Shown here in pieces: positions 1 to 53,570 of a stretch of DNA of 64,000 nucleotides (its first letter is position 1; each line of letters opens with the position of its first letter). The position numbers were made by a program, and so were the translations under genes. The stretch lies in the NCBI RefSeq assembly GCF_003018255.1, contig NZ_CP027440.1. One strand, 5' to 3'. The notes under the pieces are model-generated. The model was not told where the DNA came from. It saw only the letters and a list, made by a program, of their open reading frames with translations, and did not search any database. This DNA is from Escherichia coli (lineage in GTDB: Bacteria; Pseudomonadota; Gammaproteobacteria; Enterobacterales; Enterobacteriaceae).

Positions 1-1512
1 CATTCGTTTCGCTCGCTGTGATTGTATTGACGGCACACTTTGCGAACATGTCGTACTGGCTGTGCAGGCCTTCGTCGAGGCCAAAACTCAGCAAGCGGAA
101 TTTACTCATTTAATCTGGCAGATGCGCAGCGAACACGTCACATCATCTGACGATCCGTTTGCCAGCGAAGAGGGCAACGCGTGTCGTCAATATGTTCAGC
201 AATTAAGTCAGGCATTATGGCTGGGCGGCATCAGCCAGCCGCCAATCCATTACGAGGCCGCTTTCAGCCGCGCACAGCAGGCGGCGGAACGCTGCAACTG
301 GCGATGGGTGAGTGAATCGCTACGGCAACTGCGCGCCAGCGTTGATGCCTTCCACGCCCGCGCCAGCCACTATCATGCCGGAAAATGCTTGTGCCAGCTT
401 GCGGCGTTAACCAGTCGCTTGAACAGTGCACAAGAGATAGCGCGACGTGACAGTGTCGGTGAAGTACCGCCCATGCCGTGGCGCACGGTCGTTGGCTCTG
501 GCATTGCCGGAGAAGCAAAGCTTGATCATCTGCGGCTGGTGTCTTTAGGTATGCGTTGCTGGCAGGATATTGAGCATTATGGTTTACCGATCCCGACACC
601 GGCAGTATTTTGCATCTTTCGCGTAGTTGGCCGAGAAGCGAACAGGAAAACTCACCGGCAGCGACGCGTCGGCTGTTTAGTTTTCAGGCTGGCGCACTGG
701 CGGGCGGGCAAATTGTTTCACAAGCAGCAAAACGCAGTGCCGATGGCGAGCTGCTGTTAGCTACCCGCAACCGCTTAAGCAGCGTTGTGCCGCTGTCGCC
801 TGATGCCTGGCAAATGTTGAGCGCGCCGTTACGCCAGCCGGGCATTGTGGCTTTGCGGGAATATTTACGCCAGCGTCCCCCCGCCTGCATACGGCCTCTT
901 AATCAGGTCGATAACTTATTTATTCTGCCGGTCGCTGAGTGTATTTCGCTCGGTTGGGATAGCAGCCGCCAGACGCTGGATGCGCAGGTAATCAGCGGCG
1001 AAGGTGAAGATAATCTGCTGACGTTATCACTGCCAGCCTCAGCCAGCGCGCCTTATGCCGTTGAACGCATGGCGGCGCTTTTGCAACAAACAGACGACCC
1101 CGTGTGTCTGGTTTCTGGCTTTGTCAGCTTTGTAGAGGGGCAATTGACACTGGAACCACAGGTAATGATGACAAAGACTCGTGCCTGGGCGCTGGACGCA
1201 GAAACTGCGCCTGTGGTGGCATCACTACCTTCTGCCAGCGTTCTGCCTGTGCCGTCTACTGCTCATCAGTTGCTGATGCGCTGCCAGGCGTTACTTATTC
1301 AACTGCTCCATAACGGCTGGCGCTATCAGGAACATAGTGCTATTGGTCAGGCAGAGTTGCTGGCGAATGACCTCACCGCGGTGGGTTTTTATCGGCTGGC
1401 ACATGTGTTGGGACAATTTCGTAATACAGAAAGCGAGGCACGGGTAGAAGCAATGAATAACGGTGTTTTGCTGTGCGAACAATTATTCCCCATGCTTCAG
1501 CAACAAGGATGA
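1..1512 (+). pseudogene. yehQ: SWIM zinc-finger protein YehQ, C-terminal ~500 codons, split across two overlapping same-strand reading frames (frame open from window start to 760; second frame open 574..1512)
   Basis: SWIM-like CxCx5CxH motif (CDCIDGTLCEH) translated from bases 17-49; two long overlapping ORFs in different frames imply a frameshift near 580-760; position upstream of yehR. Confidence 0.55.
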
Positions 1513-1636: not shown

Positions 1637-2098
1637 ATGAAGGCTTTCAATAAGCTGTTTTCCCTCGTTGTTGCATCTGTTCTGGTTTTCTCTCTTGCTG
1701 GCTGCGGTGACAAAGAAGAATCGAAAAAATTCAGCGCCAATCTGAACGGTACTGAAATTGCCATTACCTATGTCTACAAAGGTGACAAGGTGCTTAAGCA
1801 ATCTTCTGAAACCAAAATTCAATTTGCCTCCATTGGTGCAACCACCAAAGAAGACGCTGCCAGGACACTTGAGCCGTTAAGCGCCAAATACAAAAACATC
1901 GCGGGTGTTGAAGAAAAATTAACCTATACCGATACCTACGCGCAGGAAAACGTGACTATCGATATGGAAAAAGTGGATTTTAAAGCCCTGCAGGGTATTT
2001 CAGGAATCAACGTTTCTGCTGAAGATGCCAAAAAAGGTATCACTATGGCGCAAATGGAACTGGTGATGAAAGCCGCTGGTTTTAAAGAAGTGAAATAA
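1637..2098 (+). CDS. yehR: lipoprotein YehR (DUF1307)
   Basis: 153-aa ORF with signal peptide and lipobox (LAGC); GGAG RBS 6 nt upstream of ATG 1637; track ORF 1625 start rejected. Confidence 0.9.
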   Translation: MKAFNKLFSLVVASVLVFSLAGCGDKEESKKFSANLNGTEIAITYVYKGDKVLKQSSETKIQFASIGATTKEDAARTLEPLSAKYKNIAGVEEKLTYTDTYAQENVTIDMEKVDFKALQGISGINVSAEDAKKGITMAQMELVMKAAGFKEVK

Positions 2099-6894: not shown

Positions 6895-7821
6895 TTACGC
6901 CTCCTCCAGCAGATCCTGAAAATGCAGCGTGCCGCAAGGCTCGCCCTGCGTGTTCACCACCGGCAGCACCTCGCATCCCCGCGCGACAAACAGAGAAAGC
7001 GCATCGCGTAGCGTCATCTCTTCTGCCAGCGCCTCACCTTCTGCCCGTTCTTCGCGACGCACGTAATCCGCCACGCTACGTAACGAAAGCAGGCGGACAC
7101 CCAGTTCACTATGCCCAAAAAACTGGCGGACAAAATCATTCGTCGGACGAGTCAGCATCGTCAGCGGATTGCCCTGCTGCACCACTTCACCGTGATCCAT
7201 CAACACCAGATGTTCTGCCAGTCGTAGCGCCTCATCAATATCATGAGTGACCAGCACAATGGTACGCCCCAGCAAACGGTGTATGCGCGTCATCTCTTGT
7301 TGCAACGCGCCGCGCGTTACCGGGTCCAGCGCGCCAAAAGGTTCATCCATCAGTAAGACTTGCGGATCGGCAGCCAGCGCGCGGGCCACTCCCACACGTT
7401 GCTGCTGACCACCGGAAAGCTGATGCGGATAACGCTCACGCAAATTTGGCTCCAGCCCCAGTAGCGCCATTAATTCGTCGATACGATCGTCGATCCGCGC
7501 CCGTGACCATTTTTGTAATTGCGGCACGGTGGCAATATTTTGCGCCACGCTCCAGTGGGGAAACAGGCCAATAGATTGAATGGCATAGCCCATCCGGCGG
7601 CGCAACTCCAGCACTGGCAGCGAGCGAATTTCTTCTCCGGCAAAGCGGATCACGCCACTGTCATGCTCCACCAGGCGGTTAATCATTTTCAGAGTGGTGG
7701 ATTTACCGGAACCCGACGTGCCAATCAGTACCGAAAAACTCCCTTCCTGAAAATTGAGATTGAGATCGTTAACGGCTTTTTGTGCGCCGAACAGTTTGCT
7801 GACATGGCTAAATTCAATCAT
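6895..7821 (-). CDS. yehX: ABC transporter ATP-binding protein YehX
   Basis: Walker [13 protein letters not shown] signature LSGGQQQR, Walker B LLLMDEP, C-terminal CBS-like region. Confidence 0.93.
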
Positions 7822-8971
7822 TACGTTTCACCTTCAGCAGTGCGATAAGCAAATCGAACAGCGCGTCGGTAAGCACCGCCAGAACAATTACCGGGATCAC
7901 CCCCAGCAACACTAAATCAATGGCACTGCTTAGCAGCCCCTGGAAAACCAGCGCACCAAAACCGCCTGCGCCGATTAACGCCGCAATCACCGCCATGCCA
8001 ACGGTTTGTACCATCACCACCCGCAGGCTGCGCAGAAATACCGGTAACGCCAGCGGTAACTGAACATGCAGGAAACGCTGCACCCCGCTCATCCCCATCG
8101 CTCTGGCGCTCTCCAGCACATCGCGCGGGATCTGGTTCAAGCCGACTACTACGCCGCGCACCAGCGGCAGCAAGGCATAGAGCACCAGCGCAATCAGTGC
8201 GGGTGTCATTCCGGTTCCTGCTATGCCGAGCGTTCCCAGCCACGGAAAGGCCGTAACCAGCGCGGCAAGCGGCGCAATCAGCAGGCCAAAGAGCGCTACC
8301 GAAGGCACGGTCTGAATGACATTCAGCAGAGAAAAAATCGCCCCCTGCCGCGCGGTGGAAAAGTAGCACCAGATGCCCAACGGCACACCAATCACTAACG
8401 CAGGCAGCACCGCACCAAACAGCAACGTCAGATGTTGTGCCAGCGCGTCGTCAAACACATCCTGACGGTTGGCGTATTCTTTCATTAACGAGAGATCGTT
8501 AAGCGTGCCGGAGTACAGCAACCACAGCGGAACAATGGCAATCTGCATATGCAACAACCAGCGCCACAGCGGATGCGTGGAGATTCGGCGGATGGCATCG
8601 CTACAGGCCAGCAGTGCCAGCGCCGCAGCCAGCCAGAAACCACTTCCGAGGCTGGTACGCGCCAGCGCACTGCCATTTTGCGCCAGTTGTGTCGCCGCCT
8701 TTCCAGCTCCCCACACCAGCAATACGAAGACGAATTGCGCCAGAATGAGTGCAAAAATGCTGCCTTTTTTAGCGGGAATAAAACAGGCTGTCAGCCAGGC
8801 GCAACCAACGCCCACCAGCATCCAGAGAGTTTGCGGCCACAGCTGCCAGAGATGACGCCCCTCACCCGAAACTAAACGATTAGGTGCGTAACTGATAAAC
8901 GGCAGCGCCGCTGCGATTGCCGTCAGCAACAGCAGCAGCGCCAGAACAGGATTAATACGGAAATAAGTCAC
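7814..8971 (-). CDS. yehY: ABC transporter permease YehY
   Basis: 385-aa polytopic membrane protein; GTG start; 8-bp overlap with yehX. Confidence 0.9.
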
Positions 8972-8977
8972 GGGAAA

Positions 8978-9895
8978 TTACTTCGTCCACCCTTTTTGTT
9001 TCAGGTAGTCGGCTGCCACTTTTTTGGCATCCAGTCCTTCCACTGCAATGCTGGCATTCAGCTGCTGCAATGTTTTTTCATCGAGGCTGGCGAAGACTGG
9101 CTGTAGCCACTGTGCTATTTGCGGATACTCTTTCAGCACCGACTCACGCACCACTGGCGCAGGCGCGTAGATAGGTTGCACGCCTTGCGGATCGCTTAAA
9201 GTTTGCAGCCCCAGCGCCGCGACCGGGCCGTCAGTGCCGTAAGCCATCGCCGCATTAACGCCAGAGGTTTGCTGGGCAGCGGCTTTGATCGTCACCGCCG
9301 TGTCACCACCGGCCAGTGACAGCAACTGATCCTGACTGAGCTTAAAGCCATAGGCTTTTTCAAACGCGGGTAAGGCATCGGCGCGTTCGATAAACTCTGC
9401 CGAGGCTGCCAGTTTAAAGGTGCCGCCCTCTTTCAGATAACGACTCAGGTCGGCAAGCGAAGTGAGTTTGTTTTTCTCTGCCACATCCTGACGCACGGCG
9501 ATGGTCCAGGTGTTATTTGCAGGCGCGGGCGTCAGCCAGATTAACTTGTTTTGCTCTGCATCGAGTTTTTTGACTTTCTCATAGCCTTGCTGCGCGTTTT
9601 TCCATGCCGTATCGTTTTCATCTTTAAAGAAAAACGCGCCATTGCCAGTATATTCCGGATAGATATCCAGCTCGCCAGAAGTGATCGCCCCGCGCACTAC
9701 GGGAGTCGTTCCCAGCTGCACTTTATTTACCGTAGGAACGCCGTGACTTTCCAGCACCTGCAAAATGATATTGCCGAGCAGCGCGCCTTCCGTATCGATT
9801 TTTGAACCAACCTTAACGGGGGAAGCCGCCTGTAGCGGCAGGCTCACGGCTGCCAACAAAACCAGTGAACCTGCCCAGACCTTTGAGAGTGGCAT
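8978..9895 (-). CDS. osmF: periplasmic glycine-betaine-type substrate-binding protein OsmF (YehZ)
   Basis: 305-aa ORF with signal peptide (LVLLAAVSLPLQA); operon context. Confidence 0.9.
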   Translation of the reverse strand: MPLSKVWAGSLVLLAAVSLPLQAASPVKVGSKIDTEGALLGNIILQVLESHGVPTVNKVQLGTTPVVRGAITSGELDIYPEYTGNGAFFFKDENDTAWKNAQQGYEKVKKLDAEQNKLIWLTPAPANNTWTIAVRQDVAEKNKLTSLADLSRYLKEGGTFKLAASAEFIERADALPAFEKAYGFKLSQDQLLSLAGGDTAVTIKAAAQQTSGVNAAMAYGTDGPVAALGLQTLSDPQGVQPIYAPAPVVRESVLKEYPQIAQWLQPVFASLDEKTLQQLNASIAVEGLDAKKVAADYLKQKGWTK

Positions 9896-20830: not shown

Positions 20831-22024
20831 TCAGCGTGGTTGCAAACAGTTATCTTCTTTCCAGCCGTACAGCCACTCCATGCCGCGGTAAAACTCTGCC
20901 TGCGATTTCCCTTTCCACAACAGGTTACGTACCTGGCGCTCTACTCCTGCGGCATGATAAACCCGCCCCATTTCACGGGTCGACCAGACGATGCGCGCGG
21001 TGCGCGGAATACGTACCGACTCATACAGCGCAAAGGCTTGTGCCGCATCACCCTCACACTGCGCCAGCGCCTTACCCAGTGTTACCGCGTCTTCCAGCGC
21101 CATACAGGCACCCTGCGCCATATACTGCGCCACCGGATGGGCCGCATCGCCCACCAGCGTAATGCGCTTCGTTCCCCACTTCGCTACCGGTTCACGGTCG
21201 GCGGTTGACCAGCGTCGCCAGGAGGTCGGTTTATCCAGCATCTGGCGCGGACGGGGGTGAATCCCTTCAAAGTAAGAGAGCACTTCCTCTTTACTGCCAT
21301 CCTTCACGCCCCACTCTTCCTGCTGGCGGCTGTGGAATGTCACCACCAGGTTATACTGCTTGCCGCCACGTAAAGGGTAATGCACCAAGTGACAGCACGG
21401 CCCCGCCCACAGTACTGGTGCGTTAATGCGCAAATCTTCCGGCATATCGGCACAATCGATAACCGCACGGTAGACCACATGCCCGGTGACACGCGGCGCA
21501 TCGCCCAATAAGCTCTGGCGCACCACTGACTTCACGCCGTCACAGCCAATCAGAATATCGCCGATCCAACTATTGCCGCGATCGTCGAAAACGGTGACAT
21601 CGTCTTCTGTCTCGCGAATATCCACGACGTTGGTGGAGGTGTGATATTCCACGTCCGGATGCGTCAGTACCGCTTCCCACACCGAGGCATGAATATCAAC
21701 CCGGTGGATCACCGCGTAAGGGCCGCCGAAATGATCGCGAAAGGCCTGACCGGTTTCAATGCGCACCACTTCTTCGGCGTTTACCGCATCCATCATGGTG
21801 ATGTGATCGGTGAATACCGCGCGCTGGCGGGCGATTTCACCGACGCCGAGGCTATCCAACGCCGAAAACGCATTTGGCCCCAACTGGATACCTGCGCCAA
21901 TCTCACCGATCTCATGCGCCTTTTCCAGCAGCACCACTTTGATCCCCTGGCGGGCCAGTGACAACGCAGTTGCCGCACCGCCGATCCCGCCTCCCACAAT
22001 TACTGCGCGTGTCACTTTAGTCAT
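20831..22024 (-). CDS. FAD-dependent aromatic monooxygenase, 3-hydroxybenzoate 6-hydroxylase-like (MhbM-like)
   Basis: 397-aa ORF, N-terminal GxGxxG FAD fold ([17 protein letters not shown]), DG motif (CDGVKSVVR) and GD motif ([15 protein letters not shown]); AGGAG RBS. Confidence 0.88.
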
Positions 22025-22038
22025 TATGGTTCTCCTGG

Positions 22039-22683
22039 TCAGGCTGAAATTTTATCTTGTTGATTTTCTGGCGCTGCGGCAATGAACGCTGGCAGCTGCG
22101 TGCAGGCGTCGTACACCGCTTTGCAGCGCGGATACCCGCTCAGATCGCAGTTCATACGTAGCGCGTTCGCCCACTGTGGAACAAGGCAGCAATCTGCCAG
22201 CGTCGGCGTCTCGCCCACACAAAATTGCCCCGACTGGCTCTGGCGCAGTAGCTGTTCCACCGCGCTTAACCCTTGCTGGATCCAGTGCGCATACCAGCGT
22301 TTTTTATCTTCTTCACTGACGTTCAGCTCTTCGGTCAGGTAGCGCAGCACGCGTAGGTTATTCAATGGATGAATATCGCAGGCGATGGCATAGACAATTT
22401 CCAGCACCTTGTTGCGGGCCGGTTCTTCCTGCGGCATCAGCGGAACTTGCGGGTAGTGACTCTCCAGCCAGTCAATAATCGCCAGCGATTGTCCGAGTGA
22501 TTCGCCCTCGTCGGTCAGCAGCGTCGGCACCAGCCCGACCGGATTCATCCGCCGGTAGGCCAGTTCGTTTTGCTGACCAATGCGGATATTCACCCCTTCG
22601 GTCTGGTAATCGATACCCTTCAGCGCCAGCGCAATGCGCACCCGGTAAGACGCTGAACTATTAAAAAAACTGTACAGCTTCAT
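22039..22683 (-). CDS. glutathione-dependent maleylpyruvate isomerase (zeta-class GST, MhbI-like)
   Basis: 214-aa ORF from ATG 22683 (MKLYSFFNSSASYRVRIALALKG) with GAGG RBS; zeta-GST N-terminal motif; track TTG 22698 rejected. Confidence 0.85.
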   Translation of the reverse strand: MKLYSFFNSSASYRVRIALALKGIDYQTEGVNIRIGQQNELAYRRMNPVGLVPTLLTDEGESLGQSLAIIDWLESHYPQVPLMPQEEPARNKVLEIVYAIACDIHPLNNLRVLRYLTEELNVSEEDKKRWYAHWIQQGLSAVEQLLRQSQSGQFCVGETPTLADCCLVPQWANALRMNCDLSGYPRCKAVYDACTQLPAFIAAAPENQQDKISA

Positions 22684-22690
22684 CATCACC

Positions 22691-23392
22691 TCAGACAATC
22701 TTCACCGCGATAGGCGTTAAGCCCTCGACGTTGCCCGTGATCACATCACCTTTGACTACTGAGCCAACCCCTTCCGGCGTACCGGTAAAGATTAGATCGC
22801 CCGGTTGCAGTTCAAAGAAGCCTGACAGGTAGCTGATGGTTTCATTCACTGACCAGATGAGATGACGAATATCGCTGCGCTGATGATCTTCGCCGTTAAC
22901 CTGTAACCAGATAGGTGCGTTATCAATACCGCCAGTTTCGCTGGCTTTGTGCAGCGGCGCGATGGGGGCCGAGAGATCGAACGCTTTGCCGATTTCCCAC
23001 GGGCGGCCCATCTGGCGCATTTCCATTTGACGGTCACGGCGAGTCATATCAAGACCCGTGGCATAACCCCAGACATATTCATGGGCGTTTTCCAGCGGGA
23101 TATCACTGCCTTTTTTACCAATCGCCACCACCAGTTCAATTTCATAATGGTAGTTATCGGTCTGCGCCGGATACGGCAGCGCCAGCGTTTCGCCAGCGGC
23201 AACCGGAACAATGGCATCCGCCGGTTTGCAGAAGAAGAATGGCGGTTCACGATCCGGATCAAAGCCCATTTCGCGGGCGTGGGCGGCATAGTTACGTCCG
23301 ACGCAGTAAACGCGGCGTACGGGGAATTGTTCATCACTGCCAACAACCGGTACGGTAACGGGCGCTTGTGGTTCGAATACGTATTGAGTCAT
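22691..23392 (-). CDS. fumarylpyruvate hydrolase (FAH family, MhbH-like)
   Basis: 233-aa ORF with fumarylacetoacetate-hydrolase family features; GGGAGAG RBS; operon position. Confidence 0.85.
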
Positions 23393-23407
23393 TTTCTCTC
23401 TCCCAAA

Positions 23408-24436
23408 TTAATAACGTGCTTCGCGGAACAGCCCCAGGGCTTCTTGTACCGGTCTGTCCGAAAAACTAAATAAAACGGTATCTTGCGTGGTCTGGAACGA
23501 CACGCCGTGCCAGGTCGGCACCACGAAGATATCTTTTGCACTAAAGCTGAAGGTTTCATTGCCGATAGTGACCTGCCCGCTACCTTCCACCACATGGTAG
23601 ATGGTGCTGTCAGTGGTACGCGCCACGCGTGAGGCAAACCCTTTCGGCAGCAGTTGCAGAAAAGCGCCCATCGACGGCATCGGATAGCCACCGGTGACCG
23701 GGTTGACGTAGCGCATTTTGTAGCCATCCCACTCATCGGCATCGCCCAGGCGGGTTAAATCGTGTAGCACTTCGCGGCTACGGTCATAACGGTAGTTAAA
23801 GATGGGCGAGGAGTTCCCGGTCTGATGGCGCAACGGCAACATATTGGCAGCGTAACGCGGCAGGTAATCGCCCTCTTTACGCGTTACTGGTTGTTGCTCC
23901 TCCGGGTAATCTTCGGCAAAACCGCAGCCCAGAGTGTTCACTAATGGCAGATCCAGCCCATCGAGCCAGATAACCGGTTCGTCGCCAGGGTTACCGTGAT
24001 CGTGCCAGCGCCACTGCGGGGTCAGGATAAAATCGCCCTCATTCATTGACGTGCGTTCGCCATCAACGGCGGTGAATGCCCCTTTACCTTCAACAATAAA
24101 ACGCAGCGCCGACTGGTTATGGCGATGACTCGGTGCCACTTCGCCCGGCATGATCAGTTGCAAACCGGCATATAAAGTCGCGGTGATGGAAGACTGCCCG
24201 CGCAGCGCCGGGTTTTCCAGCACCAGCACGCGGCGCACGGCTTCTTTCGCGCCAATCAGGCTGCCGCTCTCCAGCAGCAACGGGCGGATCTCCTGATAAT
24301 TCCAGTACGCTGGCGCACAGTTAGCGTTGGGCGTTTTTGGCACCAGATGGTGCAGTGACTCCCACAGCGGGGTCAGGTTTTGCCCGGAAATATGCTGATA
24401 AAATTGCTCGCGGCTATTTTGATTGTTATCAGTCAT
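23408..24436 (-). CDS. gentisate 1,2-dioxygenase (bicupin, MhbD-like)
   Basis: 342-aa ORF, two cupin halves with His-rich metal sites; AGGAG RBS. Confidence 0.88.
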
Positions 24437-24447
24437 TGGGATGCTCC

Positions 24448-25806
24448 TTATTCGTTCACAACACCTGCGTGAGGCAGTGAGTCAGGGACAGAGGTCGACT
24501 GGCGAACCACGGTGATCAGCTGGGTTAACATCACCGCACTGATCGCCGCGGGCACAGCGATAATGAAAAACAGGGTGTCGAAAGAGAAATTCATCGCCAT
24601 CATAACGCCGCCAGACAGCGAGCCAACAATCGCGCCGCAGCGGCCCACGGCGTTTGACCAGCTCACGCCCGTGGCGCGACTTTGTGTTGGATAAAGTGTT
24701 GCGGTCAGCGCATTCAGCCCCACCTGCGATCCGCTGATGCCAATGCCGGTGCCGAAAATCGCCAGCGCCATTAGCCATAATCCGTCCTGGCTTAAGCCAA
24801 TCATCACGATGCATACAGCGCCTATGGCATAGCTCAGCGCCAGTACGCGGAAAGGATTGAACTTATCCATAAGCACGCCCAGCGCCAGCGCGCCCAACGT
24901 ACCGCCAATCTGGAACGCGGCGGTAACCCAGGAGGCATGTTGCAGGTCGATGCCGCGATGGTTGAGCTGCGTTGGCATCCAGCTTGAGAGCAGGTAAATA
25001 ATCAGCAAGCTCATAAAGAACACCACCCACAGCATCAACGTGATGGGTAACTGACGCCCCATAAACAGTTGACGAATGCTGCCTTTTGTAACGGAGGCTG
25101 ATTCAATGAGATAAAAGTGGGTATCGACATAACGCTCGCGGATGATGGCGCTGACGGTTTTCGCAATCACCGCCTGGGGTAGCTGGCGGCGCACCTGCCA
25201 GCGTGGCGATTCCGGCAGAACCACCAGCAGTGCAACAAACAGCATCAGCGGTAATACGCCACCCAACACCAGGATCCCGTGCCAGCCAATCACCGGCACC
25301 AGCTGCGCGCTGACAATCCCGCCAAACGCCGAACCCAGGGTAAAGCCGCAAAACATCAGCGTCACCAGCGCGCCGCGGCGGCGGGCAGGCAGATATTCCG
25401 AGGTCATGGTAATTGTATTTGGCATCGCGCCACCCAGCCCAAGGCCGGTGAGGAAACGCAGGAATACCAGCGTTTGCAGATCCGGTGAGAAAGCCGAGGC
25501 GAGGCTTAACGCGCCAAACAAAAAGACGCACAGCTCAATCACCCGTTTGCGGCCAAAGCGATCGGACAACGGACCACAAAGCAGTGCGCCTGCGGTTAAC
25601 CCCAGCAGACCCGCGCCAAAAAGCGGGGCGAGATCGCCTGCGGTGAGTTGCCAGTGAGTGCGAATATCAGGGGCGATAAAGCCGATAGCCGCGGTGTCAA
25701 AACCATCGAGCATTACCACCAGAAAACAGCAGATGATAACGCGCCACTGCATCTTGCCGACCGGAGCAGCATCGATCAGTGCTTGTAAATCACGTCGTTG
25801 AGTCAT
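24448..25806 (-). CDS. MFS aromatic acid:H+ symporter (3-hydroxybenzoate transporter-like, MhbT-like)
   Basis: 452-aa ORF, 12 predicted TM segments, MFS signature ([11 protein letters not shown]). Confidence 0.88.
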
Positions 25807-25884
25807 AGTAAATGCCTCAGTGCAGGTAAGGTAGATGTTTCATTTGTTTTATGTATGTTGCGATATTGTGATTAAAGAGATGAA

Positions 25885-26841
25885 ATGTACAATGGCATTT
25901 CGGACAGAGAGATAACCTGGAGGTTATGGCAAATGGCAAACTGGGCGCAGAAACTAAAGCTTCATCACCTGCAAATGCTGGTGGCGCTGGGTGAACAGGG
26001 CAATCTGACCCATGTCGCGCGGATGATGAATATCACCCAGCCTGCGCTGTCGAAATGGTTGTCACAACTCGAAGATGAGATCGGCCTCACACTCTTTGAG
26101 CGGCACAGCAAAGGACTTCGTCCTACTGAAGGCGGCAAATTGTTATTGCAACATGCCCAACGGTTAATCAATGACATGGAGCGCTCGCAACATGAACTGG
26201 CCCGTTTTAAACAAGGTGGACTGGTCGGCAGTCTGAAAATTGGCTGTTCTCCCGTCGCCACTGACTGCGTATCCCAGGCGATTTTGCATTTGCTCAAGGA
26301 GATGCCAACTCTACACCTGAATATCGAAGAGAAGGTGATGACCCCATTGCTGCAAGATCTGTTGGCAGGTTCTGTCGATGTGGTGGTTGGGCGAATTGGC
26401 GGTCGCGCGTTGCAGCTGCCGCTGAATTATCGCGTGCTCTACACCGAGCCGGTGTGTTTTGTCGCCCGTCCTGAGCATCCACTGGCGAAATACGCCACCC
26501 TCAGCTGGAATGATCTTGCTAACTGGCGGTGGATAGTCTGGCCGACAGGTACCCCCATCCGCATCAGCATTGATAATGCGCTGGTAGACCACGGCGTGAT
26601 GCTGCCAGAAAACACGATTGAGTCGGCGTCGATGAACGTCAGTACCAACCTGTTACAAAGCAGCGATATGATCTCTATTTTGTCATTACGCCTGGCGCAA
26701 CGTTATGCCAGCCAGGGACAACTGGTGATTCTCAACCTGCCAAAGATAGAACAGAAAGGCAGCGTCGGTGTGTTCTGGCGCAATAACGAAACGCCTTCTT
26801 ATGCTTTAAGTCAGTTTCTGCACTTTTTACAGCAGAATTAG
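25885..26841 (+). CDS. LysR-type transcriptional regulator, divergent from the catabolic operon (MhbR-like); alternative start ATG 25933
   Basis: N-terminal HTH (LHHLQMLVALGEQGNLTHVARMMNITQPALSKWLSQLE) and LysR substrate-binding domain; GGAGG RBS precedes the 25933 ATG. Confidence 0.85.
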   Translation: MYNGISDREITWRLWQMANWAQKLKLHHLQMLVALGEQGNLTHVARMMNITQPALSKWLSQLEDEIGLTLFERHSKGLRPTEGGKLLLQHAQRLINDMERSQHELARFKQGGLVGSLKIGCSPVATDCVSQAILHLLKEMPTLHLNIEEKVMTPLLQDLLAGSVDVVVGRIGGRALQLPLNYRVLYTEPVCFVARPEHPLAKYATLSWNDLANWRWIVWPTGTPIRISIDNALVDHGVMLPENTIESASMNVSTNLLQSSDMISILSLRLAQRYASQGQLVILNLPKIEQKGSVGVFWRNNETPSYALSQFLHFLQQN

Positions 26842-49132: not shown

Positions 49133-50383
49133 CTACGCTAAGCCAATAAAGAATCCTGCAATGGTTGCACTCATCAGGTTAGAAAGTGTCGCCGCCGCCA
49201 GCGCGCGTAAACCAAGCTGGGCGATTTCCGGTGCACGGTGTGGCGCAACCGCAGAAAACGCCCCCACCACCACCCCGATAGAACCAAAGTTAGCGAAACC
49301 GCACAACGCGAAGGAAATAATCGCCACGGTTTTAGCATCCAGAGTGCCAGCCGTTTGCAGATAGGGTGAGAAATTGAGGTAAGCGACAAATTCATTTATT
49401 GCCAGTTTCTGTCCAATCAAACTCCCGGCAAGATTCGCATCACTCCAGTCAACACCCATTACCCACGCCAGTGGGGCCAGCAGGTAACCTAAAATGGACT
49501 CCAGCGAGGCATGTTCAAAGCCAAACCAGCCGCCAACGCCGCCGATAATACCGTTAATTAACGCAATGATGGCGACAAATGCCATCACTACTGTCGCCAC
49601 ACCTGCGGCGATTTTCAGCCCGGTCATTGCCCCTGTCGCAGCGGCTTCAATAATGCTTTTTGGCGGTGTTTCGGTGAAAGAGAGGTTATTAAAGGAAACC
49701 TGCGAAGATTCTGTTGCCGGGCTTAACAGGCGGGCAAACAAGATCCCGCCGGGGATCGCCATTAACGATGCCGCCAGCAGATATTCCACAGGCACGCCCA
49801 GTGCGGCGTAACCAATCATTGTCGAACCAGCAATCGAGGCCATCCCGCTACAAATCGCTGTAAATAATTCATTGCGATTCAGACGATTGATAAAGGGTTT
49901 GACGATTGCCGGAATTTCGTTTTGCCCGAGGAAAATGGTAGTGACCGCGACGAATGACTCGATCTTGCTGATATTCAATGCTTTCTGGAAGATACCGCCG
50001 AGAATGCGAATTAAGATCCCCATCACACCGATGTAGTAGAGAATACTCACCAGTGCTGTAACGAAGATAATTGCCGGTAATACCCTGAAACCAAAGATAA
50101 ATCCTGCGCCATCAAATAAGGTATCCATTTTTGGTCCGACCAGAGAACCAAAGATAAATGCGCTACCTGCATCGCTGTACGCCATCACTTTATGCACGCC
50201 AAAAGCGACTTTTTCTGCGACCCAACGCCCTGGTGGTAACCAAAGCATAATGCCGCCAATCACGACCTGTAACACTAACGCCGCGCCAACGGTACGCAGG
50301 CTGATCTTCTTCTTGTTTACTGACAGCAAAAACGCAATTGCCAGCAATACCACCATTCCCAGAACACTTCTCATGACATCCAT
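49133..50383 (-). CDS. nupX: NupC-family nucleoside permease NupX
   Basis: 416-aa polytopic ORF; close paralog of the psuT ORF in this window. Confidence 0.9.
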   Translation of the reverse strand: MDVMRSVLGMVVLLAIAFLLSVNKKKISLRTVGAALVLQVVIGGIMLWLPPGRWVAEKVAFGVHKVMAYSDAGSAFIFGSLVGPKMDTLFDGAGFIFGFRVLPAIIFVTALVSILYYIGVMGILIRILGGIFQKALNISKIESFVAVTTIFLGQNEIPAIVKPFINRLNRNELFTAICSGMASIAGSTMIGYAALGVPVEYLLAASLMAIPGGILFARLLSPATESSQVSFNNLSFTETPPKSIIEAAATGAMTGLKIAAGVATVVMAFVAIIALINGIIGGVGGWFGFEHASLESILGYLLAPLAWVMGVDWSDANLAGSLIGQKLAINEFVAYLNFSPYLQTAGTLDAKTVAIISFALCGFANFGSIGVVVGAFSAVAPHRAPEIAQLGLRALAAATLSNLMSATIAGFFIGLA

Positions 50384-52319: not shown

Positions 52320-53570
52320 TCAAGCTAAACCAATAAAGAACCCGGCAATGGTCGCGCTCATCAGGTTGGAAAGCGTTGCTGCTGCCAGCGCCCGTAAACC
52401 AAGCTGGGCGATTTCCGGTGCGCGTTTTGGCGAAATAGCCGAAAATGCCCCAACGACAACACCGATAGAACCAAAGTTAGCAAAACCACAAAGCGCAAAG
52501 GAGATAATCGCAATGGTTTTCACTTCCAGCGTGCCGCCCGTTTGCAGGTATGGGGAGAAACTCAGGTAAGCGACGAATTCGTTAATCGCCAGTTTCTGCC
52601 CAATCAGGCTACCCGCAAGATTGGCATCACTCCAGTCCACACCCATGATCCACGCCAGCGGTGCCAGCACATAGCCAAAAATACTTTCCAGAGAGGCATT
52701 GGCGAAACCAAACCAGCCGCCAATTCCGCCGATAATGCCGTTGATCAGCGCAATAATTGCGACAAACGCCATTACAACCGTCGCCACACCAGCGGCGATT
52801 TTCAGCCCGGTCATCGCACCGCTCGCCGCCGCTTCGATAAAGCTTTTTGGCGGCGTTTCGCTGAACGACAGATTTTCAAATGTCACCTGCGAAGGCTCGG
52901 TGGCTGGGCTAAGAATACGTGCAAACAAAATACCACCAGGGATCGCCATCAGCGATGCCGCTAACAGGTAGTCAATTGGTACGCCCATTCCGGCATAACC
53001 AATCATCATCGAACCAGCAATGGACGCCATCCCGCTACAAATTGCGGTAAACAACTCGTTGCGATTCATGCGATCGATAAACGGTTTAACGATCGCCGGG
53101 ATCTCATTTTGCCCGAGGAAAATAGTGGTAACCGCAACAAAAGATTCGATTTTGCTGATGTTGAGGGCTTTCTGGAAAATGCTGCCAAGGATGCGAATCA
53201 GCAGCCCCATCACGCCAATGTAGTACAGCAGACTGATGAGCGCAGTGACGAAGATAATCGCCGGAAGTACGCGAAAGGCGAAGATAAAACCCGCACCGTC
53301 AAAGAGGACATCCATTTTCGGCCCGACCAGCGAACCAAAAATGAAGGCGCTACCGGCATCACTGTAAGACATCACTTTATGAACGCCTAATGCCGCCTGT
53401 TCTACCGCCCATTTTCCTGGTGGAAAATAGAGCATGATTCCGCCAATGGCGATTTGTAGCAGCAACGCGGCTCCAACCGTGCGCAAACTGATGCTCTTTT
53501 TATTCACTGACAACAGAAATGCTATTGCCAGTAACACCACCATCCCCACAACACTTCTCATTATATCCAT
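52320..53570 (-). CDS. psuT: NupC-family pseudouridine/nucleoside transporter PsuT (YeiM)
   Basis: 416-aa polytopic ORF; close paralog of nupX. Confidence 0.9.
   Translation of the reverse strand: MDIMRSVVGMVVLLAIAFLLSVNKKSISLRTVGAALLLQIAIGGIMLYFPPGKWAVEQAALGVHKVMSYSDAGSAFIFGSLVGPKMDVLFDGAGFIFAFRVLPAIIFVTALISLLYYIGVMGLLIRILGSIFQKALNISKIESFVAVTTIFLGQNEIPAIVKPFIDRMNRNELFTAICSGMASIAGSMMIGYAGMGVPIDYLLAASLMAIPGGILFARILSPATEPSQVTFENLSFSETPPKSFIEAAASGAMTGLKIAAGVATVVMAFVAIIALINGIIGGIGGWFGFANASLESIFGYVLAPLAWIMGVDWSDANLAGSLIGQKLAINEFVAYLSFSPYLQTGGTLEVKTIAIISFALCGFANFGSIGVVVGAFSAISPKRAPEIAQLGLRALAAATLSNLMSATIAGFFIGLA

Follow-up and report, generated by a model that had tools for sequence, protein, structure and literature searches.

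The 64-kb stretch of E. coli DNA analysed here (the window) opens inside yehQ, and in this strain the gene is very probably a genuine and recent pseudogene, created by the deletion of 13 bp between two 8-bp direct repeats. Positions 1-1512 of the window correspond to the 3' three-quarters of yehQ, i.e. its last ~500 codons, which are distributed over two frames of the plus strand. Translation of the open reading frames showed that frame 2 stays open from position 2 up to a TAG at 758-760, and that frame 1 is open from 574, immediately after a TGA at 571-573, to a TGA at 1510-1512. The two frames overlap by ~185 nt and the passage from frame 2 to frame 1 represents a -1 shift. A preliminary description of this DNA, made from the sequence alone, had reported a yehQ gene split over one frame running to 760 and another starting at 574; translations, gene order and alignment confirm both these coordinates and the identity of the gene.

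Position of the split in yehQ

The window starts at nucleotide 480 of yehQ, so that codon 161 begins at position 2 and the first 479 nt of the gene lie outside. Both frame translations match YehQ, with codons 161-355 found in frame 2 and codons 358-667 in frame 1. The gene order is that of E. coli, yehM-yehP-yehQ-yehR followed by yehS-btsR-btsS on the opposite strand. The conserved position of yehQ was established by collinearity with annotated E. coli genomes; yehP and yehM are located upstream of the window start. The yehL-yehM-yehP-yehQ cluster, which ends with yehQ, codes for a MoxR-type AAA+ ATPase (AAA_5), a DUF5682 protein, a vWA protein and a SWIM zinc-finger protein. The features of the region are as follows.

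2..586, plus strand: native yehQ codons 161-355 in frame 2 (translation; no base differs from the intact allele of E. coli 2014C-3338)
17..49, plus strand: second SWIM-like motif, CDCIDGTLCEH (CxCx5CxH), residues 166-176 of YehQ (regular expression match; Pfam SWIM)
580..587, plus strand: deletion junction with the lone remaining copy of TGGTTTAC, 13 bp missing (alignment to 2014C-3338; list of indels relative to JNE112863)
587..760, plus strand: out-of-frame tail of 57 aberrant codons (PIPTPAVFCIF...MASCC) ending at the premature TAG 758-760 (translation)
580..1512, plus strand: stranded 3' yehQ coding sequence in frame 1, codons 358-667 (580-1509) and the normal TGA 1510-1512 (alignment, translation)
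1637..2098, plus strand: yehR, the downstream lipoprotein gene, intact (annotation carried over from JNE112863; 0 amino-acid differences, no internal stops)

A scan of positions 500-2200 for promoters and terminators gave nothing above the shuffled expectation.

A 13-bp deletion between two direct repeats

To locate the lesion we aligned positions 1-1600 of the window with 2014C-3338, the best-matching E. coli strain, which carries an intact yehQ of 667 codons. The encoded SWIM zinc finger family protein, WP_001563695.1, is annotated in full length (667 aa) in both 2014C-3338 and JNE112863. Over the 1,600 nt every aligned base is identical to the 2014C-3338 allele with the exception of a single 13-nt gap. 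The intact allele reads GAGCATTA-TGGTTTAC-GCATC-TGGTTTAC-CGATCC and the window reads GAGCATTA-TGGTTTAC-CGATCC, giving in this strain the junction sequence TTGAGCATTATGGTTTACCGATCCCGAC. The 13 bp missing from the window are the unit TGGTTTACGCATC, that is one copy of the 8-bp repeat together with the 5-bp spacer. That one 13-nt gap is the only departure from 100% identity indicates that the two-frame split of yehQ is not due to chance, and the complete lack of substitutions outside the gap indicates that the deletion event is recent. The alignment with intact YehQ that the preliminary description had proposed as a check thus placed the indel at 580-587, within the interval 574-760 where it was predicted to lie.

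The 13-bp segment was lost between the two 8-bp direct repeats TGGTTTAC, which are 13 bp apart, and the likeliest route would be slipped-strand mispairing during replication or microhomology-mediated repair. The loss of one repeat copy plus the spacer is what slipped-strand mispairing or microhomology-mediated deletion classically leaves behind, and judging from this footprint such a mechanism is most likely here. The spontaneous deletions between short direct repeats classically known from E. coli lacI likewise leave a single copy of the repeat. The yehQ footprint (8-bp repeat, 5-bp spacer, 13 bp lost) is the same, and the lesion does not differ in kind from lacI-type deletions between short direct repeats. 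The yehQ deletion is in this sense a new allele produced by a well-known kind of event. A phase-variable (contingency) locus was also considered and rejected, intact alleles having only two 8-bp copies 5 bp apart. Because a single repeat copy is kept in the window, there is no template for reversion of the deletion.

Predicted consequences for the YehQ protein

Because 13 is not divisible by 3, the deletion shifts the frame: the sequence is native up to and including Leu355 (584-586), after which translation continues through aberrant codons. The predicted mutant product consists of 355 native and 57 aberrant residues, i.e. 412 aa as compared to 667 aa for the intact protein, a length that presumes an N-terminus identical to that of 2014C-3338. 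This assumption is supported by an exact match of the 412-aa product in a public protein collection. An indel that is not a multiple of 3, followed 57 codons later by a stop at 758-760, is what defines a frameshift pseudogene.

The 412-aa product would keep both SWIM-type motifs and lose the conserved C-terminal 312 residues. In intact YehQ the Pfam SWIM domain (PF04434) was detected at residues 56-88 (33 bits, E = 4e-8), upstream of the window start. The preliminary description had assigned a SWIM CxCx5CxH motif to the first frame. Such a motif is indeed present at 17-49; it is however a weaker one, scoring when scanned alone 18 bits (E = 0.002) against a Pfam SWIM cut-off of 19.6 bits, and the main SWIM domain is the upstream one. 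That the 412-aa product has an exact match implies that the source genome carries this main domain. Searches with other resources were negative: YehQ had no match in NCBIfam, neither YehQ nor YehP matched the PADLOC defence-system models, no relative of YehQ was found by sequence among solved structures, and a search of the literature on yehLMPQ returned nothing informative.

We estimated the selection acting on either side of the lesion by pairwise Nei-Gojobori comparison of the 2014C-3338 allele with seven other intact yehQ alleles. Upstream of the lesion (codons 161-355) dN/dS was 0.07-0.14, downstream of it (codons 356-667) 0.09-0.16. Such low ratios on both sides indicate that the lost C-terminal 312 residues are selected coding sequence that is read in one continuous frame with the part upstream. 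Given this selection, the loss of these residues most likely abolishes function, and we infer that the truncated YehQ would be a loss-of-function product. The stranded 3' part (frame 1, 580-1512) is most likely untranslated: no Shine-Dalgarno-like sequence was found in the 18 nt upstream of the candidate frame 1 starts TTG 610, GTG 787 and ATG 814, which makes separate expression of this part improbable.

The deleted allele is essentially private to one strain

To determine the distribution of the deletion, 86 nt spanning the junction were used as a query against complete RefSeq E. coli genomes. Out of 5,426 genomes, 5,319 were covered at 80% or more and all of them were undeleted. In the matches listed, the undeleted form appears as a span of 99 nt instead of 86, at 86.9% identity. 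Only two other records reached at least 80% coverage of the junction; both are split, two-piece matches of 96-97 nt and are also undeleted. A search for exact occurrences of a 28-mer covering the junction found none in the GTDB species representatives or in JGI metagenome contigs. The exact 412-aa product is nevertheless present in a collection of 15 billion proteins, where both NCBI and Logan are given as its sources, with a single contig of 4,892,666 bp, although the Logan listing and the NCBI assembly may not be independent. The same collection also lists the 232-aa ORF that starts at ATG 814. The deleted yehQ allele is essentially private to one strain.

Weighing a pseudogene against other explanations

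A private deletion raises the question of an assembly artefact, in which yehQ would be intact in the strain and the 13-bp-period repeat would have been collapsed during assembly or consensus calling. At a short direct repeat such as this one, errors of alignment or consensus are conceivable, and finding the deletion in no other searched genome fits a private mutation as well as an error. The usual platform errors are however indels of 1-2 nt in homopolymers and not a clean loss of 13 nt, and an 8-bp repeat is far below any read length. The surroundings also argue against an error. Compared with the closest genome, E. coli JNE112863, the 64-kb window is collinear throughout and 99.52% identical, the differences being 291 substitutions arranged in mosaic blocks and only 4 indels; the three besides the yehQ deletion are single bases, located in osmF, in the cirA-lysP spacer and in the nfo-yeiI spacer, and none of them breaks a gene here. 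All 58 other genes mapped from the JNE112863 annotation are full-length and without internal stops. With 4 indels in 64 kb and 58 intact genes the assembly is not error-prone, which rules out poor assembly as a general explanation. The exact 412-aa product is moreover recorded in both NCBI and Logan, perhaps not independently. In all, we consider it unlikely that the deletion is an artefact. Shigella-type decay was considered as well, since no E. coli record matched at 100%; this candidate found no support, the window being free of IS insertions and of rearrangements when compared with E. coli.

The two-frame layout could also be read as programmed -1 ribosomal frameshifting (recoding) within the overlap 574-757, which would give a functional, near-full-length YehQ. 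Genes that use programmed -1 frameshifting include dnaX and those of the IS3-family transposases, and this yehQ resembles them in having overlapping same-strand frames in a -1 relation: the shift needed is -1 and the overlap extends over ~185 nt. Unlike them it lacks a slippery heptamer, its layout is not conserved in orthologues and its origin is a recent deletion. The check for slippery heptamers proposed in the preliminary description found no XXXYYYZ sequence in any phase of the overlap 574-760, which contains only four homopolymer runs, each of 4 nt. Orthologues sharing the two-frame organization, which would have spoken for a programmed event, were not encountered in any of the 5,319 E. 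coli genomes covering the junction. yehQ is a single ORF of 666-667 aa in 9 of the 11 RefSeq genomes inspected and is intact in all 10 further genomic contexts retrieved via the neighbouring YehW protein, so that one continuous ORF was seen in 19 out of 21 contexts. As a recent deletion without any compensating change fully accounts for the layout, recoding was rejected.

Scarcely more probable is the production of two proteins, a 412-aa SWIM protein and a re-initiated C-terminal fragment (e.g. the 232 aa starting at ATG 814), which together would keep some YehLMPQ function or acquire a new or dominant-negative role. It is true that the N-terminal product retains both SWIM-type motifs and that the 232-aa ORF exists and is called by gene finders in public data. 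Against this, the three candidate starts lack a Shine-Dalgarno-like sequence in the 18 nt upstream and the split is conserved in no lineage. The 232-aa ORF is called wherever unrelated lesions break yehQ, which identifies it as a by-product of gene finding. A broader proposal is that the truncation is functional and not neutral, either because the N-terminal 355 residues, with or without a re-initiated C-terminal fragment, work with or alter YehL, YehM and YehP, or because the loss of yehQ is adaptive, as in recurrent inactivation of a costly MoxR-vWA-SWIM module. Independent yehQ lesions elsewhere would fit the adaptive-loss version; the proposal as a whole seems improbable to us. The deletion footprint, the 5,319 undeleted genomes, the lack of a heptamer and the clean assembly support the order in which the preliminary description had ranked the explanations, with a pseudogene before an assembly indel and a programmed frameshift last.

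In annotations the locus is best entered as a single yehQ pseudogene, frameshifted by a 13-bp deletion, and not as two hypothetical ORFs. The junction could be used as a lineage- or strain-specific marker, and the lesion, alongside the other inactivations of yehQ, supports the view that yehLMPQ is kept by selection in most E. coli and can be lost in individual lineages. Beyond annotation its importance is small.

Other yehQ lesions and allelic diversity

The same gene is inactivated in the K-12-like strain NBRC 3301, where yehQ is a pseudogene with the RefSeq note 'internal stop'. The lesions differ: in NBRC 3301 a GAG-to-TAG change near the 3' end (alignment column 1367) removes ~50 residues, whereas here a frameshift removes 312. 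Inactivation in a well-known K-12-type lineage indicates that E. coli can do without yehQ and that the gene decays readily. In strain AREA_C483 yehQ is annotated as 'frameshifted'. Contigs encoding the 232-aa C-terminal ORF were considered as possible carriers of the same deletion, and were found to have different yehQ lesions instead. A Logan contig (DRR275257) has a 1-nt deletion at nucleotide 1092 of yehQ and also a split yehP; in an ENA metagenome scaffold yehQ has lost 16 nt near nucleotides 1267-1293 and yehR is split as well. Because each of them contains another split gene nearby, these two lesions may be assembly errors. The lesion described here is a further, independent inactivation of yehQ.

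The yehQ allele type of the window is rare. With positions 1-1600 as query, 20 of 5,368 E. coli records were at least 99% identical and 4,655 fell at 90-95%. In the comparison with other intact alleles dS was very high (0.24-0.37) for codons 161-355 and lower (0.05-0.14) for codons 356-667, dN/dS being low throughout. Differences from the K-12-like strain are concentrated in columns 1-480 and 1000-1370 with almost none between. This distribution suggests an allele that is mosaic or anciently diverged and that may have been shaped by recombination.

Other features of the window

yehY (7814-8971) and osmF (8978-9895) are intact in the window, whereas in JNE112863 yehY has an internal stop and osmF a frameshift. 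With yehY and osmF broken in JNE112863 and yehQ broken here, each of these close relatives has lost different genes of the region.

Between dusC and yohJ, at 20831-26841, we found a 3-hydroxybenzoate/gentisate catabolic cluster that encodes a 3-hydroxybenzoate 6-monooxygenase, maiA, a fumarylacetoacetate hydrolase family protein, gtdA, mhbT and a LysR regulator. Coverage of positions 1601-26000 to at least 80% in one piece was seen in only 497 out of 5,426 E. coli genomes, and for this reason the cluster looks accessory.

nupX (49133-50383) and psuT (52320-53570), which cross-match when the window is compared with itself, are paralogues encoding nucleoside transporters of the NupC/NupG family; they are ~79% identical and lie ~2 kb apart.
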